Of a stretch of DNA of 33,271 bases, positions 963 to 20,325 are shown one piece after another; the stretch's first letter is position 1, and each line of letters starts with the position of its first letter. The stretch is from a virus. Lineage: Duplodnaviria > Caudoviricetes. The notes below the pieces were generated by a model. The model searched no databases and was not told the DNA's origin. It was given only the letters and a program-made list of their open reading frames with translations. The stretch lies in the IMG/VR virus record IMGVR_UViG_3300017766_001423, positions 1 through 33,271 of that record; one strand, 5' to 3'. The translations under genes were made by a program, and so were the position numbers.

Positions 963-2162
963 TTATGCATATTTATGTTTCTTTTTCTTCTTAAAAGTCT
1001 TTTGAACCACAGGAGATTTTTCTATTTTTGGTTGTAAAACACCCTGTTCTACCAACTTATCTACTGCTTTTTTGTATTCTTCAAAATTCTTTTGAACTCT
1101 TGGTAATTCACTAACAGGAATCTTTCCTTCTTTTAGGAGTTTTTCTGTTGCCAAATAACCAACCATCGGATGTCCGGCATAATAAGCAGTAGATGATATT
1201 TCATCTAAAATACCAAAATTGTAGATAATGTCAGGCACAAACAAAATGTCTTGTTTGGGGAAAGGAATATCCATTGCAGCCTTTGCAAACATGTAAGCTA
1301 ATATAGGCATATTAAATTTTTGCCTATAAACTTGAGCAATATGAAATAGCGGTTCTGCGCGAGTTGGTCTATAGTTATAGGCATCTAAAAATGTCTGTTG
1401 AACCTCTGGCCATGGTTTGTTTTGCAAAGCCTTTGCAATTGCTACTCTATAAATTGAGTAATAAACTTCTTCGGCCCATCCGCCCATTTCTGCTCTCTTA
1501 ATGTATGCTGCTTCTGCTTTGTCGTATTGTTGTGAATCAAAATAACTTTGTGCAAGATAAAATTGATATCTTGAATTATTTGGTTCATCAATCATCGCCT
1601 TTTCTAAAACTTCGGCATCTCTCTTATATTTTTCTATTGGATCAATATCTTTGTTTCTTGCCCCCAAAGTACGAGCAACAACACGATAATTACCTTCTAT
1701 TTTTTCTATAATTGGATTTTGTTTTTCACATGCAGCATATTCGTGAAGAATACCAACATAACTCCATTTGGCATCTAATTTAAATATTTGATTTCTCCAC
1801 CAAGAAAATTCTGGTCTTCCCATTCTTACGGCATAAGAATCGGCATTCATATTTTCTGGAAGTTTTAAATTTCCTTCTAAGTAATCATCAGCATCTATAA
1901 CAAATGCATAGTCTGCTTTACCTTCGCATAGTTGAAATGCTTCAGTTCTATTATGACCGAATCCCTTCCATTCGCGTTCATGAAGTTCTCCGGGTATTCC
2001 CTTTTCTTCAAAGAATTTCTTGATTATATCTTGGGTTCCATCAGTAGAACCAGTATCACATATTACCCAATAATCAAGAATATTGTAAATGGAATTTAAA
2101 CATTCCAAAATAATATGTGACTCATTCTTAACGATCATGCATAGTGTAAGTTTTGGTTTCAT
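963..2162 (-). CDS. GT2-family glycosyltransferase with C-terminal TPR-like repeats
   Basis: LTLCMIVKNE, DTGSTD, GFGHNR, IDADD (DxD), 'GILHE'; helical TPR-like 'RYQFYLAQSY', 'RAEPLFHIAQ'. ATG at 2162 after SD AAGGA preferred to TTG at 2168. Confidence 0.9.
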   Translation of the reverse strand: MKPKLTLCMIVKNESHIILECLNSIYNILDYWVICDTGSTDGTQDIIKKFFEEKGIPGELHEREWKGFGHNRTEAFQLCEGKADYAFVIDADDYLEGNLKLPENMNADSYAVRMGRPEFSWWRNQIFKLDAKWSYVGILHEYAACEKQNPIIEKIEGNYRVVARTLGARNKDIDPIEKYKRDAEVLEKAMIDEPNNSRYQFYLAQSYFDSQQYDKAEAAYIKRAEMGGWAEEVYYSIYRVAIAKALQNKPWPEVQQTFLDAYNYRPTRAEPLFHIAQVYRQKFNMPILAYMFAKAAMDIPFPKQDILFVPDIIYNFGILDEISSTAYYAGHPMVGYLATEKLLKEGKIPVSELPRVQKNFEEYKKAVDKLVEQGVLQPKIEKSPVVQKTFKKKKKHKYA

Positions 2163-2181
2163 AATCAATATCCTTTACTTG

Positions 2182-2189
2182 TATTTATA
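2182..2189 (-). promoter_or_regulatory. T4-type late (gp55) promoter TATAAATA
   Basis: Exact T4 late consensus in intergenic DNA about 20 nt upstream of the GT2-TPR start, followed by an SD. Confidence 0.75.
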
Positions 2190-2260
2190 CCAACTTCCAA
2201 CAGGTGTCCCATTCTGCATGTTTATTTAATTCAACAATATTATCTGAATCAATTATAATT

Positions 2261-3313
2261 TTATACAAAACTAGAACCAGTAGGATTTAATTTTTTATCA
2301 TATATCTCAATGATTCTTTCTTTTTTTGCCAACTCAAAGTCATGATCTACCATCATATCAATTAGTTGATATATATCTGTTTTTGGTTCCCATCCTAATT
2401 TCTCTTTTACTTTAGAATAATCACCTAATAATTGATCTACTTCTGACGGACGATAATATTTTGAATCAACTTCAACATAATCTTCATAATTCATATTATA
2501 TCTGGCGAATGCTTTTTGACAGAATTCTCTAACAGTTATCATTTTTCCAGTAGCAACTACATAATCATCAGCATTTTCTTGTTGTAACATCATCCACATT
2601 GCTTCAACATAGTCTCCTGCAAATCCCCAATCACGATATGCATCTAAATTACCAAGATATAATTTCTTTTGTAATCCTTGATAAATTCTACCAACCGCTC
2701 TTGTGATTTTTCTTGTTACAAATGTTTCTCCTCTACGCGGACTTTCGTGATTAAACAAAATTCCACAAGAAGCATGCAAATTATAACTTTCACGATAATT
2801 TACGGTTAACCAATGAGCGTATACCTTTGCACATCCATATGGAGATCTTGGGTAAAATGGAGTTGTTTCTTTCTGTGGAACTTCTTGAACTTTACCATAC
2901 ATTTCAGATGAAGATGCTTGATAAAATTTAATTTTTTTACCCGATTGTTCTTCGAATGTTCGTATTGCTTCTAAAAGGTTTAGTGTTCCTATTCCAGTTG
3001 TTTCTCCAGTAAATACTGGCATATCGAATGAAACTTTAACATGGCTTTGAGCACCAAGATTATAGATTTCATCTGGAGAATATTTTGTTATAATTTTTTG
3101 AAGACTATTGAAGTCTGTCAAATCACCAAAATGTAAAAATAATTTTTTATTATAAATTTCTGGATCATTTATAATATGATCTATTCTTCCTGTATTAAAA
3201 GAAGAAGATCTTCGAATAATACCATGAACCTCATATCCTTTTGACAATAGAAATTCTGTCAAATAAGATCCATCTTGTCCACAAATACCAGTGATTAATG
3301 CTATTTTTTTCAT
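2261..3313 (-). CDS. gmd: GDP-mannose 4,6-dehydratase
   Basis: [44 protein letters not shown] (YxxxK), [21 protein letters not shown]. Confidence 0.98.
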
Positions 3314-3996
3314 ATAATTCTTTTCATTAATTGATCTACATCAGATTGACTATTATAAACATCATGTTCATCAAATACCTGACCTATAAACCACACACCA
3401 TTATTTTCTTTTCCTCGCTTACACTCTGATGGAAATGGTTTATTTTCAAAAAAAGGATCATGAACTTTACAAGTGAATTGTTTATTATAAATCAATGGGT
3501 ATACTACTTTAGATAAAAAATTTTGATCTTCACCTTTTTCTATTTTTGGATTAAAATTTTGAATTGAATTATTCATTTTTTTTAATATACCACCTTTAAC
3601 ACCCCACATACCAGCCATCATATGAGTTGAATGATATGGATGATCTCTCATAATATGAAAATCTTCTCCAGAATTTATCCAAGAATCCACTGCAATTTTT
3701 TCCCTTGGAGATAATCTAGAATCAGTATCCCTACAAATATAATATTCAACATCTTCTTCTTCCGCAGGAATGAAGCGATTAAATGCTCCTCTAGTATCAC
3801 CAAAAGTATTTTCAAATCTAATAATAGTATTATCCATCGTTTTTAATTCATCTACTATATTAGTCGGTACTGAATTAAAACAATAAAATATACATTTCCA
3901 ATCTGGAAATAATTCTTTTGCTAATTTTGCATTTTTAATAGCACCAATAGTATATGTTGGGTCTGTACCCCAAACCGAAAATGATATAATTTTCAT
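3310..3996 (-). CDS. Putative GT-A-like glycosyltransferase
   Basis: IISFSVWG...Y, RDTDSRL (DxD), MRDHPYH, AGMWG, EDQNFL; located inside the glycan cluster with ATGA overlap to gmd. Confidence 0.6.
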
Positions 3997-3998
3997 GT

Positions 3999-4616
3999 TT
4001 ATTTTTTATAAATTATATTTGTATGGTTATTCCAATAGGAGACAAAACCGTAAGAACTCATATGTCTATTTAACATTTCAATTTGATTATCATGTTCTAT
4101 ACAAACAACTTTAGTATTTAATTTATTGTAATCAATATAGGTTGCCAATTTAGCAGAATAACCTTCAACATCTACGTTGATGAAATCTACTACTGGTGGC
4201 AATATAGTTTCTAAACTTTTCATAGTTATCATAGATGTGTAAATTTTCTTAAAAGGATGTCCTCCAGATTTCCATCTATGCATAAAATTAATATCAGAAG
4301 TTGATACCGCATCTTCTAAACTATTATAAAATTCAACAAGTTTATCTTCTTCGCCAATTAATGCTTGAACTATTTTTATATTTTCATTATTTTTGTATTC
4401 ATTTATAAATCTAGAAATAGCATATGAACAACCATCAACATAACATCCACTCCATCCCTTTTCAACTAAAAATCTAGTATTTGAAAAAGTAAATGGAGAA
4501 AACGCACCTATTTCTAAAAAATACCCATTATCGGATAAAATTGCTTTAAGAGGATCACACTCTCCATGTTGTGAATAACCACCGTTGTAACTATTTTTAA
4601 AACCCGAATCTGACAT
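3999..4616 (-). CDS. FkbM-family SAM-dependent methyltransferase
   Basis: YSQHGE, FLEIGA...SNT...GWSG, DFINVDVEG, VVCIEH. Confidence 0.85.
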   Translation of the reverse strand: MSDSGFKNSYNGGYSQHGECDPLKAILSDNGYFLEIGAFSPFTFSNTRFLVEKGWSGCYVDGCSYAISRFINEYKNNENIKIVQALIGEEDKLVEFYNSLEDAVSTSDINFMHRWKSGGHPFKKIYTSMITMKSLETILPPVVDFINVDVEGYSAKLATYIDYNKLNTKVVCIEHDNQIEMLNRHMSSYGFVSYWNNHTNIIYKK

Positions 4617-5209
4617 TATATTTTCCTACTTTCTATATTATTAAAAACTAACCCACTTCTGACAAAGTGACTTTTATGATTTGGACTGTACATTTGCCAA
4701 TCTTTAACTGCTACATCTCTTAATTCATTAGTTAATTCCTGATTATAATATAAATTATATTTTTTAAATATATCTATCCAATAATCTGAATTTTGTAAAT
4801 TTACATGATGATGTCCTGCCTGGCCAGGAAAAGCATGTGTAATTAATATCAACTTACATTTAGTAAAATCTACCATAAAATTATCGATAAACTGGGCATC
4901 TACATGTTCTAAAAATTCACAACACCAAGATAAATCAAATTCTTGATCAATATTTGTTTTCCCTATAGTGTAATCATGCGTGATTATAGAATCTTTAACA
5001 TTTGAGTTTTCTTTACACAGTGGATCACCCTCAATACCAATAACATTGCATCCATTATTTTTAAAAAAAGAACAAGATATTCCCATCCCACAACCAACAT
5101 CTAAAACGCTTTTGACATTATACTTATCGATAACATATTTCCACATATTTGGATAATATGTTGCTGGATCTCCAATTTCTCCTATCATATATCCCCCCAA
5201 ATGATTCAT
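4616..5209 (-). CDS. Class I SAM-dependent methyltransferase (probable sugar O-methyltransferase)
   Basis: SVLDVGCGMG motif I, FDLSWCCEFLEH, PGQAGHHHVN. Confidence 0.88.
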   Translation of the reverse strand: MNHLGGYMIGEIGDPATYYPNMWKYVIDKYNVKSVLDVGCGMGISCSFFKNNGCNVIGIEGDPLCKENSNVKDSIITHDYTIGKTNIDQEFDLSWCCEFLEHVDAQFIDNFMVDFTKCKLILITHAFPGQAGHHHVNLQNSDYWIDIFKKYNLYYNQELTNELRDVAVKDWQMYSPNHKSHFVRSGLVFNNIESRKI

Positions 5210-6195
5210 TGATATTTCCTTTCTATGAAAACATTTTTAAATTCATTCATAACATTTTTTGCGCTAAAAGTTTGACTATATGCATCCCAATTTTTGTGTA
5301 CAATATCAGATTTATTAATATGTAAAAATATATTTTTTATATCATTTCTATCTTTATAATAGATTCCCTTATCTTTCAATGAGAAGATATGACCAGTATC
5401 ATACGTTGAAGGAACAGTATCTGGATTCCATGTAATGATTGGTTTATTTTTTATAGAAAATTCTGCAACAGACAAACTAAAAACTTCACCATCTAATCTT
5501 GCATGTATCATTGCATCACATGTATTTATAAATTTACACTTTAGTGATTCATCTATAGTCATTGGCAAATATATAACCCTTTCATGGGTTATGAAATGAT
5601 TGGTATTTAAAAATACAAACCATAAATCTTTTCTAAAATTTAATACATTTATTATCTCTTCCTTAACAAAAGGAATGCTAAAAGTATCATGTCCTCCATG
5701 ACGACCTAAAACAATAGCATCATTTGGTATACCAAGTTCATTTCTATAATTATCAGAAATATTGGATTTATCTTCTATAATATGATGAACAAATGGAAAA
5801 ATATTTCCATGCTTAGATGACATATATTCACAAATAGATGCATACACATCCCCATGTTTATATTTTAATGTAAACACACAATGCATTAAATTTTTACATT
5901 GAGTTGTAAATATTTCATCATGTTCACCACTTTTTATTGCATAAAATAAATCAATATTTTCTGAAGAAACAATTTTATCAATATTTACATGTTTTTTATT
6001 GTTTTCGTAATAAGGTATAACTTTAAATCTTTTACTAAATTTATCAACAATAGAAAACACATTACATGTGTTACTGGCATTATATGTAATTATTGACTCG
6101 TTATTTAATATTTTTTCATTATAATCTGCATAATCATATAATGCTTTTGCTGTTCCTCTTTCACAGAGATAATTATCATGGAATAAAATTTTCAT
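5206..6195 (-). CDS. GT-B (GT4-like) glycosyltransferase
   Basis: N-terminal RGTAKALYDYA, GRHGG, 'CDAMIHARLDGEVFSLSVAEF' (E-X7-E motif). Confidence 0.8.
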   Translation of the reverse strand: MKILFHDNYLCERGTAKALYDYADYNEKILNNESIITYNASNTCNVFSIVDKFSKRFKVIPYYENNKKHVNIDKIVSSENIDLFYAIKSGEHDEIFTTQCKNLMHCVFTLKYKHGDVYASICEYMSSKHGNIFPFVHHIIEDKSNISDNYRNELGIPNDAIVLGRHGGHDTFSIPFVKEEIINVLNFRKDLWFVFLNTNHFITHERVIYLPMTIDESLKCKFINTCDAMIHARLDGEVFSLSVAEFSIKNKPIITWNPDTVPSTYDTGHIFSLKDKGIYYKDRNDIKNIFLHINKSDIVHKNWDAYSQTFSAKNVMNEFKNVFIERKYQ

Positions 6196-6818
6196 AAAAT
6201 TTGAATATTGTTAATTTCTTCTGTCGTCATTTTTCTTTGTGGAGATTCTGTTTTATTTGTATCAAAATTGTAATAGCACATTATTTTGTTTAATTTAATT
6301 TCTGTAGATACTTTAGATTTTAATGATTTTGTAAAAATAGAATCCTCAATACCATTGCAATCATAAAAATTTGCTATCTTTGCAATATCGTTTCTCCAAC
6401 AACACCAATGCCATGGATATCTATACATGACATTGTTGTCTATAAAGTCATCTGATAATGGGTAAATTATAGATGAATCAACTACCAGTTTTCTACCATC
6501 TATACTACATTCTTGATCGTATGAAATTACTTCTTCTTTTTTATTATTTTCAATAATTGGTATTAAAGTTGAAATAAAATCGTCAACCACATCATCATCA
6601 TCATCAATCTGACAAACATATAAACCATTGGCAATATTAAATAAATTTTTTCTTTTCTTCCCCACACTCATATTTTTATTATCTAACAAAGAAATTATTT
6701 CAACTTTTTTACCATAATTAAAAGATTGATTATTTAATTTTGTATATAATTTTATTAGTTTATCTATCCTAGAAGGAAGTGAAGGAATACAAACGGATAA
6801 AAGTGGTAAATTATTCAT
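6192..6818 (-). CDS. GT2-family glycosyltransferase
   Basis: LSVCIPS, VGKKR, ANGLYVCQIDDDD, IED. Start at ATG 6818 (overlapping upstream stop) preferred to 6854. Confidence 0.85.
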   Translation of the reverse strand: MNNLPLLSVCIPSLPSRIDKLIKLYTKLNNQSFNYGKKVEIISLLDNKNMSVGKKRKNLFNIANGLYVCQIDDDDDVVDDFISTLIPIIENNKKEEVISYDQECSIDGRKLVVDSSIIYPLSDDFIDNNVMYRYPWHWCCWRNDIAKIANFYDCNGIEDSIFTKSLKSKVSTEIKLNKIMCYYNFDTNKTESPQRKMTTEEINNIQIL

Positions 6819-7500
6819 ATTTTTTATTAATCCAAAAACTATTACCTGTTCCATTTTTCATTTCATTATCTAAACCCAAAGAATGTAATCTAAATTTAGA
6901 TGAAAGTAATTTTTCTAAATCTTTAGAAAAACATTGCCCATCATATACCGCCCTATCCATATTTTCTGACATTTGAATTTCTGCAAATATACAAGATACA
7001 TTATCTAAATTAGTTCCCTTAAGAACTTCATGCTCTGCACCCTGTACATCTATTGTCAATAAATCAATATTTTCGTCAAGTATATTACATAGTTTATCAG
7101 TATTGACTTTAATTTTTGCGACAGATTTAAAATCATAACCACTATTGTTGTTTTGAAGAGTTGGATATATTGAATCGGAACCGGGAGATGACGTTCTATA
7201 AAAATCAATAACACCTGTTTGATTTGTTATTGCAATATTATATAATTTACATCTTGGATTATTTCCATACTGCATATTAACCACATTAAAAAACTCAATA
7301 ACTGGTTCAAATATATGAATTATACAATTTTTATATTTTTCTAAATATAATTTTGCTTCCCAACAATGATATCCACCAACAATAACAATTGTTTTTATAT
7401 CATCATTTGTTTTGTTTAAATATTTTGCAAAATTATTTTCAATATCTCTAGAAATAGTGTCATATGCATTCGGTTCTTTATAAATTATAGTCTCAATCAT
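6811..7500 (-). CDS. FkbM-family SAM-dependent methyltransferase
   Basis: IVIVGG, IHIFEP, IDLLTIDVQGAEHEVLKG, IFAE. Start at ATG 7500 (ATGA overlap) preferred to 7530. Confidence 0.85.
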   Translation of the reverse strand: MIETIIYKEPNAYDTISRDIENNFAKYLNKTNDDIKTIVIVGGYHCWEAKLYLEKYKNCIIHIFEPVIEFFNVVNMQYGNNPRCKLYNIAITNQTGVIDFYRTSSPGSDSIYPTLQNNNSGYDFKSVAKIKVNTDKLCNILDENIDLLTIDVQGAEHEVLKGTNLDNVSCIFAEIQMSENMDRAVYDGQCFSKDLEKLLSSKFRLHSLGLDNEMKNGTGNSFWINKKYE

Positions 7501-9053
7501 TTTTGTGTTTCCGTTTCTGTTGGACTCCATAGGTAATGATACATGATTTCCTCAAAAATATACTCATTTGTTACTAAACCAGATTCCATTAAACGATTAC
7601 AATAATCTGAATCCTCTCCATAATTTTTATCAGGAAATCTAATCACTTTTGCAATTTGTGTTTTTATGGGATTTAAATGATTTAAAGGTCTACGTTGTCT
7701 GCCGAGTTTATCTTTATAATGACCTTTATTTTTATTTGCATGATTAAATAGCATTGTTGGTTTGTCATTTACATAATATAAACCCCAAAAACTAATACCA
7801 TCATACAAATCAGAATTTAATTTTCTACAAATTTTAGGAATGTATGTATCTGATATTAAATCATCATCATCAATAAACGAAATATATTTTCCATTTGCTT
7901 GTTCTAGACATTCATTTCTTTTCTGTCCTACTGTTTTTTCTTTGTTATCCGTATTTACAATTATTTGAATTCTGTGTTTATATGAATATGGAATAGTTTC
8001 ATTTATCTTATTTAACAATTTTTCTAATTTTTCTTTTCTGCTTGGAATAGTAAGAATACAAATACTCCAAAGAATATCTTCTTTTTCTTTTTCAAAATTA
8101 TAATTTGTTTTTATTGTTTCTTCTATTCTTTCAAAAAAAGATTTACCATATTCTAATGCTAATTTATAATTTTTTTCGATATATGGTTTCATTGATTCGT
8201 ATGTATTTTCATCAATTTTGTTGATTTTTTCAATAAATTCTTCATATGAATTAAATGTAATTATTCCCCTAATATCAAAAAATTCATCAAGATTTGGACA
8301 TCCCCAATATATCGGAACAGTCTTTGTTAATAGCGGATCTATTAGTTTTTCGGTGAAATAAGATTCTTCCTTACTGCTCTCAACTGCAATATTGAATTGA
8401 TGATCAAAAAGATGTATCTTATCATCATCTTTTATGAAACCATCGTGCAACGTGTTTGAAAATTGCGTTTGGAATCCAAAAGTATCTTGATATGCGTAAT
8501 TAGTAGGCATACGAGAACTTGAATAAAATTTTGTTGGAATATTTATTGCATTTCTAGAATTCCATATTTTTTTCCTAAGTTCATACCCTTCTTTAAATTG
8601 CAAATATGTTGTAAGAAAAGTAGCACCAAATTTTTTATTTGGTATTTTTTCTAAAACTGCTTCATCAAAAGATCCCAAAGAATCTAAATGTGAATTTTCT
8701 TTTTTATTTAACCATGTTCCACCATAAGGAAAAAATACAGCATTATCTACATTTTCTATAACTTCGGATTCCCAAGTAAGAACAAGATCATATTGATGTG
8801 CATTATCAATGATAACATCATTTATTTCTCTACCCTCAGAACTTGACGGTTCATTAGAACACACAAAAACTTTATATGAATCTTTTGTTTCAAAATTTAT
8901 TTTTTCTGGAATACGCTGTTCATTTCTTGCAGGAATTCTCAAAGGAGTTCCGCGTATCCAGTTTTGACCAAATCTACTAATATGAACTTCACATGGAAAG
9001 TCAAAATTCATTTCACTAGAAAAATAATCACCATTATGTACTATTGCTTTCAT
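7497..9053 (-). CDS. Bifunctional glycosyltransferase: N-terminal GT10 (alpha-1,3-fucosyltransferase-like) + C-terminal GT2
   Basis: FNIAVESSKEESYFTEKL...VPIYWG (GT10 motif), then WSICIL...VGQKRN...YISFIDDDD...GEDSD (GT2). Confidence 0.85.
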   Translation of the reverse strand: MKAIVHNGDYFSSEMNFDFPCEVHISRFGQNWIRGTPLRIPARNEQRIPEKINFETKDSYKVFVCSNEPSSSEGREINDVIIDNAHQYDLVLTWESEVIENVDNAVFFPYGGTWLNKKENSHLDSLGSFDEAVLEKIPNKKFGATFLTTYLQFKEGYELRKKIWNSRNAINIPTKFYSSSRMPTNYAYQDTFGFQTQFSNTLHDGFIKDDDKIHLFDHQFNIAVESSKEESYFTEKLIDPLLTKTVPIYWGCPNLDEFFDIRGIITFNSYEEFIEKINKIDENTYESMKPYIEKNYKLALEYGKSFFERIEETIKTNYNFEKEKEDILWSICILTIPSRKEKLEKLLNKINETIPYSYKHRIQIIVNTDNKEKTVGQKRNECLEQANGKYISFIDDDDLISDTYIPKICRKLNSDLYDGISFWGLYYVNDKPTMLFNHANKNKGHYKDKLGRQRRPLNHLNPIKTQIAKVIRFPDKNYGEDSDYCNRLMESGLVTNEYIFEEIMYHYLWSPTETETQK

Positions 9054-9055
9054 AA

Positions 9056-9727
9056 TTATATCCTATTTAAATTTAATAAAATTCCATCTTCACTCATGCC
9101 AATTTTTTCAGCAAGTTCTCGAATGTTTTTTTCTTTCGATTTTCCGTCTGCAATACCCATAGTTATGTATGGATCTATGTCTGGGGGACATCTACCAGGC
9201 CAAACACAATAAGAAAGTGGAAGACAACCTATCGACATTTGGCTTACAAAGAAAGGTAAAACTCTAAACATCAAAATTTCGTGATCAAAAAATCTTTCCT
9301 CTGATTTTAATGTTTTTTCGCATTCTCTCAACCACATTTTTAAAAAATTAATAACTTTTTCATTGTAGTTGCAAAATATTGGTGATGCTTTTGGTTGCAT
9401 TACATTAATCTTTGTTTTATCTGTTTCAAAATAAGAAAAACCAAGATCAACATGAAGATTGACAAATTTATCAAATACATCCAATTGTTTATGAATTTTA
9501 GAATCAATATCTAACCAAACTATTGGTTTCTTTTTTTCTTCTAAGATATTCAATATAAACTTTGGTTTTCTTAAACAATTCAATCTGTAATCACCATGTG
9601 AATTTATTTTTCTAAAATCAAATGGTATTTTTAAATTTTTGCATTCTTCAATAAGACGAGAAGCATTGTCGCTATAGTATGTTGATCCATCTATATCACA
9701 ATAAAATGAAATAATTTCAGTTTGCAT
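9056..9727 (-). CDS. Putative GT-A nucleotide-diphospho-sugar transferase (GT77-like)
   Basis: KPKFIL...IVWLDIDS (DxD), ASPIF, FDHE; cluster context. Confidence 0.65.
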   Translation of the reverse strand: MQTEIISFYCDIDGSTYYSDNASRLIEECKNLKIPFDFRKINSHGDYRLNCLRKPKFILNILEEKKKPIVWLDIDSKIHKQLDVFDKFVNLHVDLGFSYFETDKTKINVMQPKASPIFCNYNEKVINFLKMWLRECEKTLKSEERFFDHEILMFRVLPFFVSQMSIGCLPLSYCVWPGRCPPDIDPYITMGIADGKSKEKNIRELAEKIGMSEDGILLNLNRI

Positions 9728-10556
9728 TTGTTATTAGTTTATATAATACATCATCTGCTAATTCCATATTCTTTACCCGTTCAAGATTATCCTGAATTGC
9801 AGACATTTTACTATTATAAAGTTCCGGTGTCAATGTAGAAAAATCAAAATCTGGTGTTAACTCTATTATCCCATCTTTGTTGAAATAATCACCAATGTCA
9901 GGTGTACCCCAATATACAGGAATTGTTCCTGTTGCAAAACAATCTGTTATCTTTTCAGTAAAATATGTTTCATATTTGTCATTTTCTATTACGACAGAAA
10001 ACATATAATCATTCATTGCTTCTGATTTATCAGGCCAAGTCCCTTCACCAAATCTCTTAGAACCATTTACACCACCATATACATCAACCTTATCTGCGTG
10101 TTTAGATGCAATTGCATGTCTAAGTTTATGACCAAATGTGATAATTTTTGGCGAAGCAATCATAGACAAAAGTTTTGATTTGGGGTAAATTTCTTTATTT
10201 TTTGTCCAAGCTGCATTGCTTCCTGCAAATGCAAATTTTATATTTTCAGAATATTTACACCACCTGCGGTCAGAAACATAAATGGTATCAAATGAATTTA
10301 TAATTCTTTGTATGTTTTTTTCCCAAATGTCCTCGGGAAACATCCAAGCATGAAATATTGCACGGGATTCGCATACCCATGCTATTTTTTTCTCATTTGG
10401 TTTTTTGACATAGTTTAAATTAGGCGCAATTGCGCGATCTATAAAAACTTTGATTTCTGAATCTTCTGTTGTCCATTCAAATAGTTTTGGTTTTAAATCA
10501 GAACAAGATGAATATTCTATCGAAAATGGCGCACCAATCGCTTGCATTTTTTTCAT
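9717..10556 (-). CDS. GT10 (alpha-1,3-fucosyltransferase-like) glycosyltransferase
   Basis: YMFSVVIENDKYETYFTEKITDCFATGTIPVYWG; SD GGAG. Confidence 0.85.
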   Translation of the reverse strand: MKKMQAIGAPFSIEYSSCSDLKPKLFEWTTEDSEIKVFIDRAIAPNLNYVKKPNEKKIAWVCESRAIFHAWMFPEDIWEKNIQRIINSFDTIYVSDRRWCKYSENIKFAFAGSNAAWTKNKEIYPKSKLLSMIASPKIITFGHKLRHAIASKHADKVDVYGGVNGSKRFGEGTWPDKSEAMNDYMFSVVIENDKYETYFTEKITDCFATGTIPVYWGTPDIGDYFNKDGIIELTPDFDFSTLTPELYNSKMSAIQDNLERVKNMELADDVLYKLITNAN

Positions 10557-14115: not shown

Positions 14116-14439
14116 TTACATTTCCACCCAATGGAACCCATTTTGATCTTTTATTAGAGTATATGTTATTCCCGTGTTTGGATTAAACCATCTATCGCCA
14201 ATTTTTTTAGTTATTGGTTCCGTTATTTGAGAAAAGAATCTATTTGGGTCTATGTCTCCAATTTTTTCCCAACCACTGTCTTTTGCTAATGGATTTAATC
14301 CTCTAATAATTTTCGTCGCGGTATAATAAACGCCACCAAAATCAACGGTATCGCCAATAGTATATTCAATAGTCTGGCCATTTGGATCATATTTTTTGTA
14401 TATGCCTCTAAATTTTAGATTATCTGTTTTATTAATCAT
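14116..14439 (-). CDS. Hypothetical protein with CBM5/12-like motif
   Basis: 'YTIGDTVDFGGVYYTA...P...W' resembles chitin-binding modules; C-terminal 'GDRWFNPNTGITY...WVE'. ATGA-coupled. Confidence 0.6.
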   Translation of the reverse strand: MINKTDNLKFRGIYKKYDPNGQTIEYTIGDTVDFGGVYYTATKIIRGLNPLAKDSGWEKIGDIDPNRFFSQITEPITKKIGDRWFNPNTGITYTLIKDQNGFHWVEM

Positions 14440-15551
14440 TTGAATGATCTAAGAATAAGAGTGTGTGCGTTAATTCTACCTTTTGGTTTTGCTTCTTTTG
14501 TTTTTTGAGATTTCCAGTAATTATTTATGCTGCGAATTCCTTCACTTTTTGCTTTTGACATAAATTCTACGGGTTTTCTCATTTTCTTTTCTACTGATTC
14601 ATCAGAAAAACCAATAATAGTGCTACCCTTTACACTTATACCTGAACCATTTGGATCTGATTTAAATAGTGTTGCCTTGTTTGTTTTAACATTGAATACA
14701 ATTAATGTTTCACAACCAATAATTGAATCTGGCAAAATAGATTCAACGCCACTTGAAGTATCCTTGACTAGATATTTTAACTTTTTAACTAGTTGCTCTG
14801 GCTTCTTCTTTTTCTTTTTTCTTGGCTTTCGGTTACTCTTTGCAATTGTGATCCGTACTCGCAAATAATCACAAATTGACTTATAAAAGTCATACATTTT
14901 TTGTGCCTGCTTTTTAGTCAAGAAAGAATATGCTTCTTTTAATTGTTCATCTTTGCCTTCAACAACGAGTTTAAATTCATTTAGACCACGCTCAAAGCAT
15001 TCTAGCAAAAATTCACAATGCATCGAACTCGGTTCGTTGTCGTTAATCCATTTTTCTACATTAAATAACTTATAGTTTGGATTTTTACCAAGAATATATG
15101 ATTCGTATTCATCAATTCGTTGCTCAAGGTAATTGCCAAGTTCATAGGATTGCTGTCGAACTCTCTCACGAACAGGCACTACAGGTCCGCTTACTTGTTC
15201 TATATTTTTTCCAACTGCAATTAACTGTTGAATACCTTCGTTAATTGCCGTTTTAACTTTCAACGGCAAAATACAATGAGATAAATTTGACTGACACTTT
15301 CCACCAATAGATCTAAAAGTAAAATTGTCAACAGCAACCTTGGCAACCATATCGACGCCTGGAATTTTATTTTTTTCCATGTATCCGATGACACTTGCCT
15401 TATAATCCCTATCTGTATATTTTGTATTATACCAATTCAATGCAAATGCAATTGACCAATATACCTTGTCTTCGTCTTTATAATCTTCCGGTTTCCAGTG
15501 CTTCCAATTCGGTTGTTTACCGTAAAAGATCTCTTCTGTTTCCGATTTCAT
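14436..15551 (-). CDS. Hypothetical phage protein (371 aa)
   Basis: Long ORF, ATGA-coupled at both ends; basic RKPRKKKKKK segment; no catalytic motif recognised. Confidence 0.85.
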   Translation of the reverse strand: MKSETEEIFYGKQPNWKHWKPEDYKDEDKVYWSIAFALNWYNTKYTDRDYKASVIGYMEKNKIPGVDMVAKVAVDNFTFRSIGGKCQSNLSHCILPLKVKTAINEGIQQLIAVGKNIEQVSGPVVPVRERVRQQSYELGNYLEQRIDEYESYILGKNPNYKLFNVEKWINDNEPSSMHCEFLLECFERGLNEFKLVVEGKDEQLKEAYSFLTKKQAQKMYDFYKSICDYLRVRITIAKSNRKPRKKKKKKPEQLVKKLKYLVKDTSSGVESILPDSIIGCETLIVFNVKTNKATLFKSDPNGSGISVKGSTIIGFSDESVEKKMRKPVEFMSKAKSEGIRSINNYWKSQKTKEAKPKGRINAHTLILRSFK

Positions 15552-17125
15552 GGTTTATAGTATACAAAAACTGGTTCGTATTTCAAATAATTTCCATTCA
15601 CTTTGCAATAGTTTTTACATTTTGGTTTGCCATTCTCATCAAGACGATTCTGACCCGGCATTCCTTCCATTGCCATTTTTAGTGTTTGGATGTATTCCAT
15701 ACCAAGAGACTCTAAAATATCCTTTGAATCTTTTTCTAAAGTGAGATAAGTTCCAGACACCTGAATATCTGCAATATTCCACAACAAATATCTATTATTT
15801 TTTAGATATTCTACACATGTTTCCAATGTTGGTCGTAAAAAACCATCAACCCACGATTGATAATTATCAAATTTTTTATATGATTGATTTTTATCCTCTG
15901 AATATGCCTCTCTATTAAAGTATGGTGGAGATGTAAAAATCAAATCAATTTTACCTTTATATTTTTTAAATTCTGGATCGTCTTTTATTGTTTCCGAACC
16001 ATGTTTAAAAATTTGGTAAGTATTGGTTGAGGAGAAAAACGAGTTTCCTCTATAAGTTCTTGTATTGTAGAAATCAGCAATACTGCCATAGTTGCCGCCA
16101 TTCCCAAGACTAGAAGGGAAATTATCCAAATTGGGGTCAGTTCCGACATAGTGAATATTTCTATTGTCATTGACAGACATTGCACCAAGAATCCGACCGC
16201 CCCAACCAGAAGAAGGATCGTAAATAATAATTTGATTTTGATTGTAAAAGGGTTCTGTAAATTTTTCATAAAGATATCTTGCTGTTAGAGGTGGAAAATT
16301 AACTGCCGGTTGAATGTAACCTATTCTAAAACTAGGAAAGCATTTTGGGAAAACCCTACGACCTTTTTCATAAACTCTAATTCGGAAAATTTTATCATCC
16401 GGTATATTCTCACAATCAAATGTAGAATAATGTCTATAAGAAAGTTTTGGTTTCCATTTTAAAAATTGTTCTTTGGATAATGATAGTATTTTGGATTGTT
16501 CAATTTGATAATAACCAGTATTGACACCATCTTCATCATCGTGTTGATCTAATATAAAATCATGATCTTTAAATATATTTTGATTTGTAAAATATGCTTC
16601 CAACCATTCTTCTCCAGAAGAAACGGAAATTAAAGCATACTTACTGTCGTTTTTAATAGCAGAGCAAGCGAAAGTATATAATGAATCTCTTCTTATATGT
16701 CTTCTTGCTCCTTTAATCATTCTTGGCAAATACTTATCATTTGCAAACAAATCATAAATGGAATAACCAGTATCATTTTCGCTATAATTGATTCTGGTTT
16801 TGTACATATTAGAAAACCACTGGTCTGCTTCAGCACCAAGACGAGACTTATTTATTAAGACATCTTTATTGCCTGTAAGTTCATCAACAAATTCAAATGT
16901 ATGAATTGGATAACCTGTAAGTTTATTAAACTCTTCAATTATATCTTTTTCATTTTTACCTGTTCTCGGGGGACAATTGTTCTTATCCCATGCCTCAAGA
17001 ACAACTTTACGCATTTCTATGACCCATTTTTCAAATTCAGAATCAGTCATAGCAACAATGTCTTCAAATAAGACATTTATTTCATGATTGAGTAAATAAT
17101 CATTTCTTTCATAAAAAGGTTTCAT
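15548..17125 (-). CDS. Large SAM-dependent amino-methyltransferase-like DNA modification enzyme (SPPY type)
   Basis: Motif I 'IYDPSSGWGGR', 'YVGTDPN', motif IV 'DLIFTSPPYF'; about 300 aa N-terminal region. ATG 17125 overlaps the PLP-enzyme stop (ATGA). Confidence 0.8.
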   Translation of the reverse strand: MKPFYERNDYLLNHEINVLFEDIVAMTDSEFEKWVIEMRKVVLEAWDKNNCPPRTGKNEKDIIEEFNKLTGYPIHTFEFVDELTGNKDVLINKSRLGAEADQWFSNMYKTRINYSENDTGYSIYDLFANDKYLPRMIKGARRHIRRDSLYTFACSAIKNDSKYALISVSSGEEWLEAYFTNQNIFKDHDFILDQHDDEDGVNTGYYQIEQSKILSLSKEQFLKWKPKLSYRHYSTFDCENIPDDKIFRIRVYEKGRRVFPKCFPSFRIGYIQPAVNFPPLTARYLYEKFTEPFYNQNQIIIYDPSSGWGGRILGAMSVNDNRNIHYVGTDPNLDNFPSSLGNGGNYGSIADFYNTRTYRGNSFFSSTNTYQIFKHGSETIKDDPEFKKYKGKIDLIFTSPPYFNREAYSEDKNQSYKKFDNYQSWVDGFLRPTLETCVEYLKNNRYLLWNIADIQVSGTYLTLEKDSKDILESLGMEYIQTLKMAMEGMPGQNRLDENGKPKCKNYCKVNGNYLKYEPVFVYYKP

Positions 17126-17853
17126 GCGCCTACATTCCAAAAAAGAGCACCCGGTGAAGCATATTGTTTCATGAACTTCCATGCCTTGGCATCATAGGTG
17201 GGAGCAGAAGGAAAGGGAGGAGCATCAGCAGGTTCTACTGCATCGAAGAAAGGAATGTCACACTTGTACATTTTTGCTCTTCCCAATTCCTTCTGTCCCA
17301 TTTTATGACCCACGGAAACACAATGAAATTCAGCGTCTGGCCAAGCCAATTGCAACCCTCTTGTTAGGGTTCCACTTGAACCAACTGTCCAAACTTCTTT
17401 TGGATTTATTGGTAAGTCTTTTGCTAACTCACAAATTTCATTTATAACCTCTGGACAATCAAATCCAATTGGAAATAATTTTCTATTTGTAGAATCAAGA
17501 GCAACATAGTCTCTTGCTCTCTTTTGAGTTACTGTAAGCATACCGTTATCCACTCCATGAATTATAGCACCATATTTTATTGCTTTCAACTGGTAAGGAT
17601 GAAGATTCTCTGGTTTTCTTTTTGCCATGAATAGTATGCACTTTTTATTTAAATGCTGACATACTCTTGCTAAAGAAATCTGTGCATATCCAGTTGCAGG
17701 AGATGAACCATATACCATTTCGTTTTGCGGTGTATTTTTAATCAAAGATTGAATAAATCTTGTTTTTGATCCCCCTTCAATTAAATCATCACGCACAACA
17801 TAAAACCCCTCATGTTTTTCTATAATTGGATATGGATTTATTTCATCGCTCAT
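17122..17853 (-). CDS. PLP-dependent enzyme, fold type II (TrpB / ACC deaminase / D-cysteine desulfhydrase-like)
   Basis: VVRDDLIEGGSKTR (Schiff-base Lys), GYAQISLA, phosphate loop VGSSGT, PTYDAKAW. Confidence 0.82.
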   Translation of the reverse strand: MSDEINPYPIIEKHEGFYVVRDDLIEGGSKTRFIQSLIKNTPQNEMVYGSSPATGYAQISLARVCQHLNKKCILFMAKRKPENLHPYQLKAIKYGAIIHGVDNGMLTVTQKRARDYVALDSTNRKLFPIGFDCPEVINEICELAKDLPINPKEVWTVGSSGTLTRGLQLAWPDAEFHCVSVGHKMGQKELGRAKMYKCDIPFFDAVEPADAPPFPSAPTYDAKAWKFMKQYASPGALFWNVGA

Positions 17854-19565
17854 ATTATTTTACTAAAATTGTTTTTCTTTTCAAAACCAATAAGATGTTG
17901 AAATTTATCTACTAATTGATCGGACTTATGACTAATAACAAAAATATTTGATTTATCACTCACGGCATTCAATAGTTTCATCAACTCGTCCATTCCAAGA
18001 GAGTCTAAAGAAGAATCAAAAACTTCGTCTAAAATTAGCAAATTGCAATTTACACTATTTTTCGTTCTTGCAATTTCTCTCCATGCCAGCAGCAAAGCCA
18101 AATCAATTCTCATTTTTTCGCCTTCACTAAAATTCATATAACTAAACTCATCTCTATGTCTGCTTTTAATTTTTTCATTAAAATCTTCGTCTAGTGTAAA
18201 CTGAGCAAAGAAATCCATAGATGATAAAAATTTGTTAATATATTTGTTCATATACGGCAAATAATATTTGATTATCTTTGCCTTCACGCCACTGTCTTTT
18301 AATAGAGTGTGAGCATGTTCGTGGTAAACCAATTCGTCTTTATGTTCGTCCTTTTCATTTTCATGTAAGGCAATTACTTCCTTAAGTTGCTCTAACTTTT
18401 TGGTTTCTTCTTTAATTTGATCCGTAGAAGTACCCATATCATTGAGTTCTTTTAGCAAAGATTGACGATATTTTTCTGCATTTTTTATTGAAGTTCTTTT
18501 TTGAACTATTTGTAGATTTAAATCTTGAATTTTTTTGTTTGTTTCAGTTACTTCTTTTATCTTTTTTGAAGATTCCTCAATATTCAAATCAAGATCATTT
18601 AATGCTTTTTCATATTCTTTTCTTCTTTTATCTTTCTTTTGAATTTCCTCTGTTTTAATAGTTTCATCTATTTTTTGATTACATGAAGGACAAGATGTAT
18701 TTGTTTCAAAAAATTCTATGTCTTTTTCTAAATTCTTAAAATTGATAAAAATTTTGGTTCTAAGTCTTTCTAGATCAGAAAAAGATTTATTAATTTTCTT
18801 TTCTTCTTCTGGGGAAAGTAACATACTCTGTATCTGTGTTTCTACAGAAACAATTTCAGATTGTAAATCTTGTATTTCTATCTGAAGATTATTTGATTTT
18901 TCTTCTAATGCTTTCTTATCCTCATTACTCTTGTTTTCTAGAGTACTAATGAACTGGGATTGTAATAGTGATTTTTGTTTTTCTATTTCAATCTTATTAT
19001 TAATTTCTCTAATTGTTTCCTTTAGTTGCATTATTTTACCCTTAAGTAAAATGTTCATAGTACTAAAAACATTGATATCAAGAATATTTTCAATAACTGC
19101 TCTTCGATCAGCAGCAGAAAGTTGCATAAAAGGAACAAAAGAAGAACTACCAAGAATTACAACTTGAGTAAATGTTTTGTAGTTCATTTTTAATATTTGA
19201 TCTTCTAGTACTTCCTGATAATCAAGACTTTTTGCGTCTTGATTTATCAGATTAGAATTTCTAAAAATTTCAAATATTTTTGGATTTAGACCACGACGAA
19301 TTAAATATTCATCATTTCCTTTGCTAAATTCAATTTCAACAACACAATTTTTATTGTTTACTGAATTTGTAAGTTGAGGAATATTAATTTTTCTAAAAGG
19401 TTTTCCAAACAATGCAAATGTAATGGAATCAAGGAAAGCGAATGATTTTCCGCTTCCATTGTTTCCACATATTAAGGTTGTTGGATTTTTATCAAGAATT
19501 AGTTCAGTAAAATTGTTACCAAAAGAACCAAAATTTTTAAACCGTACCTTCTTGAACTTTATCAT
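17850..19565 (-). CDS. gp46: Recombination endonuclease ATPase subunit gp46 (Rad50/SbcC-like)
   Basis: Walker A GNNGSGKS, zinc hook CPSC, signature FSEGE, Walker B ILDEVFD, ISH. Confidence 0.97.
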   Translation of the reverse strand: MIKFKKVRFKNFGSFGNNFTELILDKNPTTLICGNNGSGKSFAFLDSITFALFGKPFRKINIPQLTNSVNNKNCVVEIEFSKGNDEYLIRRGLNPKIFEIFRNSNLINQDAKSLDYQEVLEDQILKMNYKTFTQVVILGSSSFVPFMQLSAADRRAVIENILDINVFSTMNILLKGKIMQLKETIREINNKIEIEKQKSLLQSQFISTLENKSNEDKKALEEKSNNLQIEIQDLQSEIVSVETQIQSMLLSPEEEKKINKSFSDLERLRTKIFINFKNLEKDIEFFETNTSCPSCNQKIDETIKTEEIQKKDKRRKEYEKALNDLDLNIEESSKKIKEVTETNKKIQDLNLQIVQKRTSIKNAEKYRQSLLKELNDMGTSTDQIKEETKKLEQLKEVIALHENEKDEHKDELVYHEHAHTLLKDSGVKAKIIKYYLPYMNKYINKFLSSMDFFAQFTLDEDFNEKIKSRHRDEFSYMNFSEGEKMRIDLALLLAWREIARTKNSVNCNLLILDEVFDSSLDSLGMDELMKLLNAVSDKSNIFVISHKSDQLVDKFQHLIGFEKKNNFSKII

Positions 19566-19641: not shown

Positions 19642-20325
19642 TTAAACTAATTCAGTTGGTTCTGAATTACTAGAAGTATTTGTAGAATTTCTTAAGTTCT
19701 TTCCACTTGGTGGCCACCCTTCCGGTGTTCCTCTTTCAAATGTCATTGCTGATTCCATTTTAAGTCTCATGGAATATCCAGCTCCATAATACCAAGTAAT
19801 TTCTTCATCTTTGTTTATGTCTGTTAATGCATGTAGACTATAGTATTTGAGGGCAGTGTCTTGATTCCAATATGAATTTGGTTTTTCTGAGTGATTATAA
19901 ATCATTCCGTTGCCAAGGACTAATGCCATTGTATGACCAAACTTTTGACAAATCTGACAACCACATCCCCATGTAAATGCATAACGATTTAAAACCCAAT
20001 CTTTATTTTCTTGAAATGTTGTATCTAACAAAACAACAGGACACTCTTCTATCAAATCACCAGATTTGATGTCTTCTGAAGCAAATACACCAAGTCCACT
20101 TATTTTTGATTTTCCAACATACACCTTCGGTTGAACAAATTTACTCTTTATAGCAAACTTATTTTCCTTTGCAATATATGCCGAAACATAATAACTATGT
20201 GATTTTCTTGCTGGAAATCCATACTCATCGTATACTGCTTCCATGTCATTTGGACCAGGTTGGTATACACTTGGATCAAAAACTTTAGGACGATCATCTT
20301 TAGATGGCATTTCATTTGTGTTCAT
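19642..20325 (-). CDS. SET-domain protein-lysine methyltransferase
   Basis: SKISGLGVFA (GxG), IKSGDLIEECP, IYNHSEKPN (NHS), ALTDINKDEEITWYYG (EEIT..Y). Confidence 0.9.
   Translation of the reverse strand: MNTNEMPSKDDRPKVFDPSVYQPGPNDMEAVYDEYGFPARKSHSYYVSAYIAKENKFAIKSKFVQPKVYVGKSKISGLGVFASEDIKSGDLIEECPVVLLDTTFQENKDWVLNRYAFTWGCGCQICQKFGHTMALVLGNGMIYNHSEKPNSYWNQDTALKYYSLHALTDINKDEEITWYYGAGYSMRLKMESAMTFERGTPEGWPPSGKNLRNSTNTSSNSEPTELV

Follow-up and report, generated by a model that had tools for sequence, protein, structure and literature searches.

A viral contig of 33,271 nucleotides (IMG/VR record IMGVR_UViG_3300017766_001423; "the window" hereafter means this whole 33-kb stretch), T4-like by gene content, carries on its minus strand a gene for a fold-II pyridoxal phosphate (PLP) enzyme (17122..17853; 243 amino acids, aa), followed by a gene for an S-adenosylmethionine (SAM)-dependent enzyme with an SPPY motif (15548..17125; 525 aa from the ATG at 17125, with an alternative start 19 codons further upstream in the open reading frame (ORF) as listed). 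The block is flanked by gp47, a SET-domain gene and gp46 on one side and by RNase H, gp45, gp44, gp62 and RegA on the other. Comparison with relatives indicated that the module is real, widespread and uncharacterised. We consider it somewhat probable that the pair places a non-methyl, SAM-derived side chain on DNA, in either order of reaction. The particular scheme in which the SPPY enzyme would transfer the aminocarboxypropyl arm of SAM to a DNA base, followed by decarboxylation to aminopropyl by the PLP enzyme, falls a little short of an even chance.

Coupling of the PLP and SPPY genes across relatives

A preliminary description of the window, made from its letters alone, had noted that gp46, the PLP gene and the SPPY gene are joined by ATGA stop/start overlaps. 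Both overlaps are present (17850-53 and 17122-25), and a third follows the SPPY gene (15548-51). As a sign of a shared pathway they were rejected, because 4-nucleotide overlaps are frequent in this genome: 10 of the 37 junctions in the window have one, and 23 of 37 overlap or lie within 3 nucleotides. The coupling of the pair is real, and it is the relatives rather than the overlaps that show it.

Viral loci were recruited separately with the SPPY protein and with the PLP enzyme; such recruitment favours close relatives, and the counts are not population frequencies. Among 106 SPPY-recruited loci, the slot between gp46 and the SPPY gene lay off the contig in 20 and was visible in 86, where it held a window-type PLP enzyme (PLP-A) in 45, a GNAT acetyltransferase of about 150 aa in 30, a PLP enzyme resembling ViI gp226 (PLP-B, about 31% identical to ViI-family genes of Ackermannviridae) in 2 and none of these in 9. 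PLP-A and the small GNAT were mutually exclusive across the 86 loci, and clustering at 90% identity gave 34 clusters (PLP-A 17, GNAT 10, PLP-B 2, none 5), none of them mixed. Around the PLP gene, an SPPY gene lay downstream in 68 of 81 recruited loci (adjacent in 63, beyond intervening genes in 5), the contig ended in 11, and the SPPY gene was missing downstream in 2. These counts bear out the conserved linkage on which the preliminary description had made its proposal depend. In one of the last two loci, L127, a distant SPPY enzyme stands directly upstream of the PLP gene, within a dense DNA-modification cluster (L127:310-6305, also in L126, record G022) that holds this 422-aa SPPY enzyme, a PLP enzyme 71% identical to that of the window, Nmad1, a SAM decarboxylase, a Mom-family protein, a GNAT and two N6/N4 methylases. 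A partner-switch tree, with weak backbone support and one wrong label (L065, which carries GNAT), suggests repeated partner switching during the history of the SPPY family.

Fusions of PLP and methylase domains exist as well. A PF01555 domain was found in 36 of 41 longer PLP homologs, mostly ParB-type proteins in which an inserted PLP domain separates motif I of the methylase from motif IV. The cultured phages R6L, ZS04 and Pam4 have this arrangement, and in Mae-JY30 and AlanGrant PLP is the next gene after the methylase-like gene. P0242 and P0244 join a GWGGR/SPPY domain (30-33% identical to that of the window) to a window-type PLP domain (49%), one of them also with a hydroxylase. On the SPPY side, among the best 150 of 4546 profile matches, full-length window-type SPPY is fused to PLP-B in P0320 and P0352 and to an M6-like PLP enzyme in P0414 (E = 4e-39), and GNAT is attached in P0342 and P0363, both of which are partial-length SPPY matches. 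As judged from the sequences, nothing points more strongly to a shared pathway than the recurrent recruitment of differing amine-handling enzymes by the SPPY family.

A fusion of a GNAT-like domain with an Asp/Arg hydroxylase was also observed ahead of the PLP gene or fused to PLP (L131:7330-8487, L167:8799-9947 and L171:8445-9620; P0243 and P0244), and is likely a third tailoring step. The full-length SPPY homologs P0304, P0306, P0308, P0310 and P0317 share a C-terminal domain of about 200 aa; their length had suggested PLP fusions, a reading that was rejected because the extra length is this domain, which has no Pfam match.

Folds, motifs and relatives of the two enzymes

The PLP enzyme matched PALP in Pfam at E = 5.7e-5, which is under Pfam's own cut-off, and phrog_7093 at E = 4.9e-42. 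Its AlphaFold model (predicted local distance difference test, pLDDT, 92) gave the D-cysteine desulfhydrase/ACC deaminase fold in Foldseek, with template modelling (TM) scores of 0.70-0.80, and comparison with PDB sequences returned TrpB matches only, all weak. It combines the tryptophan-synthase-beta fold with a glycine-rich phosphate loop and a predicted Schiff-base lysine, Lys30 (17764..17766, minus strand), which is invariant in 96 aligned rows, as is GSSG. The preliminary description had set the enzyme beside M6 gp52 and ViI gp226, and it proved to be a distant relative: in the M6-like phage LKO4, the gene at the gp52 position encodes a protein 25% identical to it (E = 5e-11), and Lys30 aligns with K36 of that protein, which is also the number of the aldimine lysine proposed for M6 gp52 in the available text of PMC8989533. 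The same text reports that M6 gp52 and ViI gp226 were shown to decarboxylate amino acids attached to DNA thymidine. The PLP enzyme, with 1254 metagenome homologs and 37 cultured-phage records, therefore appears to form a distant subfamily of this family, and decarboxylation of a DNA-bound amino acid is predicted.

The SPPY protein matched PF01555 (N6_N4_Mtase) at residues 393-494 (E = 4.8e-7), and its N-terminal region of about 270 aa had no Pfam match. This region is followed, in non-permuted order, by motif I, the SAM-binding loop DPSSGWGGR (16193..16219, minus strand; residues 303-311, including Arg311), and motif IV, SPPY (15920..15931, minus strand; residues 399-402), the amine-activating motif of amino-methyltransferases. 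Arg311 was invariant in 107 of 107 aligned rows, as was TSPPYFNREAYS in motif IV, and the motif-I Arg was present in all 81 representatives (out of 150) that matched the motif pattern. The AlphaFold model (pLDDT 88) showed a class I Rossmann SAM fold, with Trm11/TrmN as best match (Z 15.3, root-mean-square deviation (rmsd) 3.0, 177 aligned). The tRNA guanine-N2 methyltransferases Trm11, TrmN and Trm14 headed the structural comparison (Z 14.6-15.3, rmsd 2.7-3.0, about 180 aligned), yet with 10-18% identity, a whole-model TM of about 0.25, a lead of 1-2 Z over unrelated methyltransferases and no THUMP domain by Pfam; no DNA amino-methyltransferase was prominent in the fold-match lists. With a class I SAM fold, motif I and the (D/N/S)PP(Y/F) motif IV of N6-adenine/N4-cytosine methyltransferases, the enzyme has the amino-methyltransferase fold; methyl transfer to A-N6 or C-N4 is putative. 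A PDB sequence search gave no match, and the only matches of the protein in the ESM Atlas were with its own clusters of uncharacterised viral sequences. Metagenomes held 1771 homologs and cultured phages 24 records; the 4546 profile matches are clusters at 50% identity with E ≤ 0.001, of which 192 lie at E ≤ 1e-30. In Clostridium phage phiCTP1, gp52 (L228:3674-4189), a 171-aa protein that by eye is like a shortened PLP fold, overlaps an SPPY enzyme with Lys in place of the motif-I Arg.

A distant, ParB-linked sister clade is coupled to another partner. With the ZRG1 protein as query, 80 loci were recruited, and a SAM decarboxylase gene stood next to the methylase-like gene in 74 of them, a count that includes many near-duplicates because the query belongs to the clade itself. 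The decarboxylase gene follows the methylase-like gene in both ZRG1 and P2559S, and P2559S gp66 overlaps gp67. Of 55 distinct cores from the sister clade, 54 have GDxxF in motif I, where PLP-linked ParB enzymes have GGxxR (Lys in two cases); the Asp and Phe stand where the window family has Arg in all 107 rows. Aminopropyl transferases accept decarboxylated SAM through an acidic residue in the motif-I loop. According to the available text of PMC9992855, the P2559S S-adenosylmethionine decarboxylase is functional and restored spermidine synthesis in E. coli. Its activity could not be taken for granted, as ornithine or arginine is the substrate of other phage homologs (PMC10407285, in the part available). 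As a replacement for the slot partner in partnerless T4-like genomes SAM decarboxylase was rejected, since only 2 of 45 viral contigs have it and neither is partnerless.

Proposed chemistry and rival explanations

We propose that, once the phage DNA has been replicated, the pair would modify it. The SPPY enzyme would move the 3-amino-3-carboxypropyl arm of SAM, not its methyl group, onto an exocyclic base amine, with A-N6, C-N4 or G-N2 as candidate targets, and the PLP enzyme would decarboxylate this adduct to a positively charged 3-aminopropyl group. Asp-type enzymes of the SAM-decarboxylase clade would start from decarboxylated SAM and thereby arrive at this aminopropyl base in a single step. 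Where a GNAT is the partner, it would acetylate the amine or place a mark of its own, and partnerless versions would end at aminocarboxypropyl. A primary amine in the product would be expected because the PLP enzyme and GNAT both need one and N6-methyladenine (m6A) and N4-methylcytosine (m4C) offer none. The amine may derive from SAM, since the sister clade pairs with SAM decarboxylase. Transfer would precede decarboxylation because PLP-linked enzymes keep the motif-I Arg, which could hold the carboxylate of SAM, and enzymes linked to SAM decarboxylase replace it. The mark would be confined to certain sites rather than form a blanket shield. The preliminary description had likewise proposed a SAM-derived amino-acid group trimmed by the PLP enzyme; the GNAT and SAM-decarboxylase swaps and the Arg/Asp switch in motif I speak for this idea, and the ATGA overlaps dropped out of it as uninformative.

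The genes of the known thymidine pathway were sought in the window and in relatives. The preliminary description had stated that no restriction nuclease was nearby and that the 5-hydroxymethyluracil (5hmU) DNA kinase and the amino acid:DNA transferase were missing from the window; indeed, none of the three was found among the 38 window proteins scanned, several of which are unannotated, including the 371-aa and 107-aa neighbours. Whole-genome gene-content tests were run on relatives, the source genome being represented by the window alone. In 34 long but partial relatives (23-87% complete, none reaching 90%), ADDT (PF18724), HMUDK_hel (PF18723) and the ThyA family (PF00303, that of dUMP hydroxymethylase) each had 0 matches, and ThyX was found in 12; the positive control LKO4 matched all three. 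The complete phages R6L, ZS04 and Mae-JY30, all with the PLP-methylase link, also lacked matches to the three families. G001, a 157-kb relative (86% identity in the SPPY protein), encodes ThyX and dUTPase, and a scan of 128 of its ORFs (window homologs and 7 ORFs longer than 900 aa excluded) showed no hypermodification gene. The LKO4 P-loop kinase, as a single-sequence query, gave nothing at E ≤ 0.05 in the ORFs of 4 long relatives, the other 30 contigs being outside this search. Because 5hmU-pathway genes were not found in relatives or in the three complete phages, the PLP substrate is probably made by something other than the known amino acid:DNA transferases.

Several points weigh against the proposed chemistry. 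The assignment of the reaction is, in our analysis, argued wholly from guilt by association. The best folds are RNA guanine-N2 methylases just 1-2 Z over unrelated methyltransferases, and with matches so near to background the target base, and even DNA as the target, is putative. The sister clade is only remotely similar to the enzyme of the window (E about 1e-4 to 1e-5), and its decarboxylase count contains the near-duplicates mentioned above. The putative contact of Arg with the carboxylate of SAM is deduced from motif position, and this residue is no marker of PLP partnership, since enzymes with a GNAT or with no partner retain it too. L126/L127 hold both a PLP enzyme and a SAM decarboxylase, which are thus not strict alternatives. 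None of the 34 relatives is at least 90% complete. Unrelated genes (HNH, GlnA-like, glycosyltransferase, nucleases) also enter the slot, 9 of 86 T4-like loci have no partner in it, a PLP homolog was not found in G002 (157 kb, 87% complete), and several ParB-type enzymes have no partner among their annotated neighbours. Staphylococcal relatives are mostly partnerless, with a PLP cassette found in Alsa_1 only and not in Alsa_2 or PMS3; in Alsa_1 it is a four-gene insert right after the SPPY gene (L211:5660-7401), with PLP as the last gene, and this insert is absent from Alsa_2. Finally, ACGT occurs 0 times in G001 against 381 expected (228 after synonymous shuffling), and ATCGAT 0 times against 44.

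This avoidance of palindromic restriction sites is strong in all four long relatives analysed (G001, G002, G003 and G004). AGCT and CCWGG are avoided in G002, and CTGCAG and GTGCAC in all four. Because restriction sites are still avoided, the DNA appears not to be broadly shielded, and any mark would be limited in density, with no T4-style shield. A k-mer analysis of the four genomes gave no common target motif; CACC/CACCA was mildly enriched (1.1-1.3x), in a comparison limited to SPPY-carrying genomes.

The same avoidance would fit site-specific protection if the SPPY enzyme were a plain orphan DNA methylase (m4C or m6A) equipped with a large region for target recognition, and if the PLP enzyme and GNAT had other substrates and shared with it only a hot spot for DNA modification. 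This alternative survives best among the rivals, and we regard it as unlikely. It agrees with the canonical amino-methyltransferase motifs, the default database naming, the partnerless copies and the HNH, GlnA-like, glycosyltransferase and nuclease genes that drop into the slot. It sits poorly with fusions that arose independently more than once, to several PLP subfamilies and to GNAT, some of them with the PLP domain placed within the SAM fold itself, and with the mutual exclusion of PLP-A and small GNAT in the 86 loci. Moreover, no other amino-acid-installing enzyme that could supply the PLP substrate was found in relatives or complete phages, and in the sister clade the coupling to SAM decarboxylase is accompanied by a corresponding change in motif I.

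It is improbable that the order is reversed, with free SAM as the substrate of the PLP enzyme, which would stand in for SAM decarboxylase, and with decarboxylated SAM as the aminopropyl donor of the SPPY enzyme; the end product would be the same. SAM decarboxylase does hold the partner position in the sister clade, and an inserted PLP domain could channel the cofactor. However, PLP-linked enzymes keep the motif-I Arg or Lys and have no Asp/Phe like those linked to SAM decarboxylase, the PLP relatives that have been characterised use amino acids attached to DNA as substrates (PMC8989533, available text), and PLP enzyme and SAM decarboxylase co-occur in L127.

We consider it very unlikely that aminocarboxypropyl, aminopropyl or methyl chemistry is directed at RNA, protein or a small molecule instead of DNA. 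The top folds are the tRNA/rRNA enzymes Trm11, TrmN, Trm14 and METTL5, and neither the SPPY nor the PLP protein is notably basic. The aminocarboxypropyl transferases known so far have RNA, protein or metabolites as substrates. Against this stand the position in the replication block, the ParB/terminase context of the sister clade, neighbours such as Mom, Nmad1, ASCH and DNA methylases, and the action of characterised PLP relatives on DNA (PMC8989533, in the part available).

That a third enzyme attaches an amino acid to the base, leaving decarboxylation to the PLP enzyme and methylation of the amine so formed to the SPPY enzyme, close to the second option of the preliminary description, is highly improbable. 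Relatives are incomplete (23-87%) and many G001 ORFs are unannotated, but it is the PLP enzyme that is exchanged among loci and the SPPY enzyme that stays; SPPY also persists without PLP and alongside a GNAT, which would be a competitor for that amine, and the known transferases are missing from three complete phages.

Known systems, surroundings and meaning

Transfer followed by decarboxylation, as favoured here, would resemble the thymidine hypermodification clusters, in which an amino acid is installed and then tailored by swappable enzymes (PLP in M6, acetyltransferase in PaMx11); in PaMx11 a flavin lyase and an acetyltransferase replace the PLP and radical-SAM genes of related phages (PMC8989533, Lee et al., available text). 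With M6 gp52 and ViI gp226 the PLP enzyme shares fold II, the aligned Schiff-base lysine and the PHROG family of M6-like 'threonine dehydratase' genes. Unlike them it reaches 25% identity only and is partnered by a SAM enzyme of amino-methyltransferase fold, and ThyX is found instead of dUMP hydroxymethylase, 5hmU kinase and amino acid:DNA transferase, which were not found (34 partial relatives; kinase query in 4).

The SPPY enzyme is like the orphan phage N6-adenine/N4-cytosine methylases (PF01555) in its class I SAM fold, motif I, SPPY motif IV and lack of a cognate nuclease among the window proteins. Unlike them, it has a weak match (E = 5e-7 over 100 aa), a I-to-IV order after 270 Pfam-less residues, the motif-I Arg and recurrent coupling or fusion to PLP, GNAT and hydroxylase, with SAM decarboxylase in the sister clade. 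The available text of PMC4738411 mentions methylases of ParB-terminase loci and, in that part, no PLP enzyme. Croceibacter phage P2559S gp66-gp67 and the ParB-methylase with AdoMet decarboxylase of Pseudomonas phage ZRG1 share the broad xPPY subfamily, the I-IV order and a coupled decarboxylase, whereas they are distant, their decarboxylase is pyruvoyl-dependent and not PLP, their motif I is GDxxF and not GxGGR, and their methylase-like partner is itself uncharacterised. TYW2 (wybutosine) and the nocardicin enzyme NAT are SAM aminocarboxypropyl transferases, and spermidine synthase and BpsA are aminopropyl transferases. These share the Rossmann SAM fold, but NAT (8zhv) and BpsA (5xnc) stood low in the SPPY fold lists, at background level and no more specific than other methyltransferases. 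We know of no aminocarboxypropyl or aminopropyl transferase that acts on DNA or uses an SPPY motif. A literature search found no description of the SPPY-PLP module or of aminopropyl chemistry on DNA; it did not extend to bioRxiv supplements, to subscription papers or to Iyer et al. 2013 (PMC3763556), which predicted many phage base-modification systems and may already note the link between the two genes, and the available parts of PMC13458397, PMC13444090 and bioRxiv 10.64898/2026.05.19.726188 held nothing relevant to the module.

Among the neighbours, gp46 (SbcC-like recombination subunit; 17850..19565, minus strand; 571 aa; phrog_77, E = 3e-163) is syntenic in relatives and serves as the upstream anchor of the slot, as context only. 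The 371-aa protein (14436..15551, minus strand; phrog_11903, of unknown function), ATGA-coupled downstream of the SPPY gene, lies outside the proposed pathway. It has a Lys/Arg-rich linker and an N-terminal half that is highly variable among relatives. Its gene is 3' of the SPPY gene in most relatives and diverges faster, and in some an ORF of about 120 aa or a GlnA-like gene takes its place. The SET-domain gene (19642-20325), between gp47 and gp46, is present in many relatives, absent from others and beside the SPPY gene in L035. Positions 963-10556, between RegA and a collagen-repeat fibre gene, hold glycosyltransferases (GT2, GT10-like), FkbM-type methyltransferases and GDP-mannose 4,6-dehydratase; this cassette looks like virion or surface glycosylation, not DNA modification. 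In G001 the family B DNA polymerase is apparently split into two ORFs (L182:17517-19028 and L183:4509-5621); the roughly 4.5 kb between them hold genes for a SpoU methylase and a 2-oxoglutarate-Fe(II) oxygenase, among others.

The hypothesis is directly testable because the cultured phages R6L, ZS04, Pam4, Mae-JY30, AlanGrant, P2559S and ZRG1 carry fused or adjacent versions. We give an even chance to the broader proposal that a widespread branch of annotated phage DNA methylases consists of DNA aminoalkyl-transferases, which would put the aminocarboxypropyl or aminopropyl arm of SAM on canonical bases, with marks diversified by swappable PLP, acetyltransferase, hydroxylase and SAM-decarboxylase partners. 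If so, thousands of 'DNA methylase' genes in abundant aquatic phages would do something else, and DNA bases would gain amino-acid and aminopropyl adducts made from SAM in one step. T4-like aquatic phages, siphoviruses and prophages would have a kinase-free entry to DNA hypermodification, which would account for orphan phage PLP and SAM-decarboxylase genes that are now often classed as auxiliary metabolic genes. A natural enzyme that writes primary amines onto DNA from ordinary SAM would, in addition, be a useful labelling tool.

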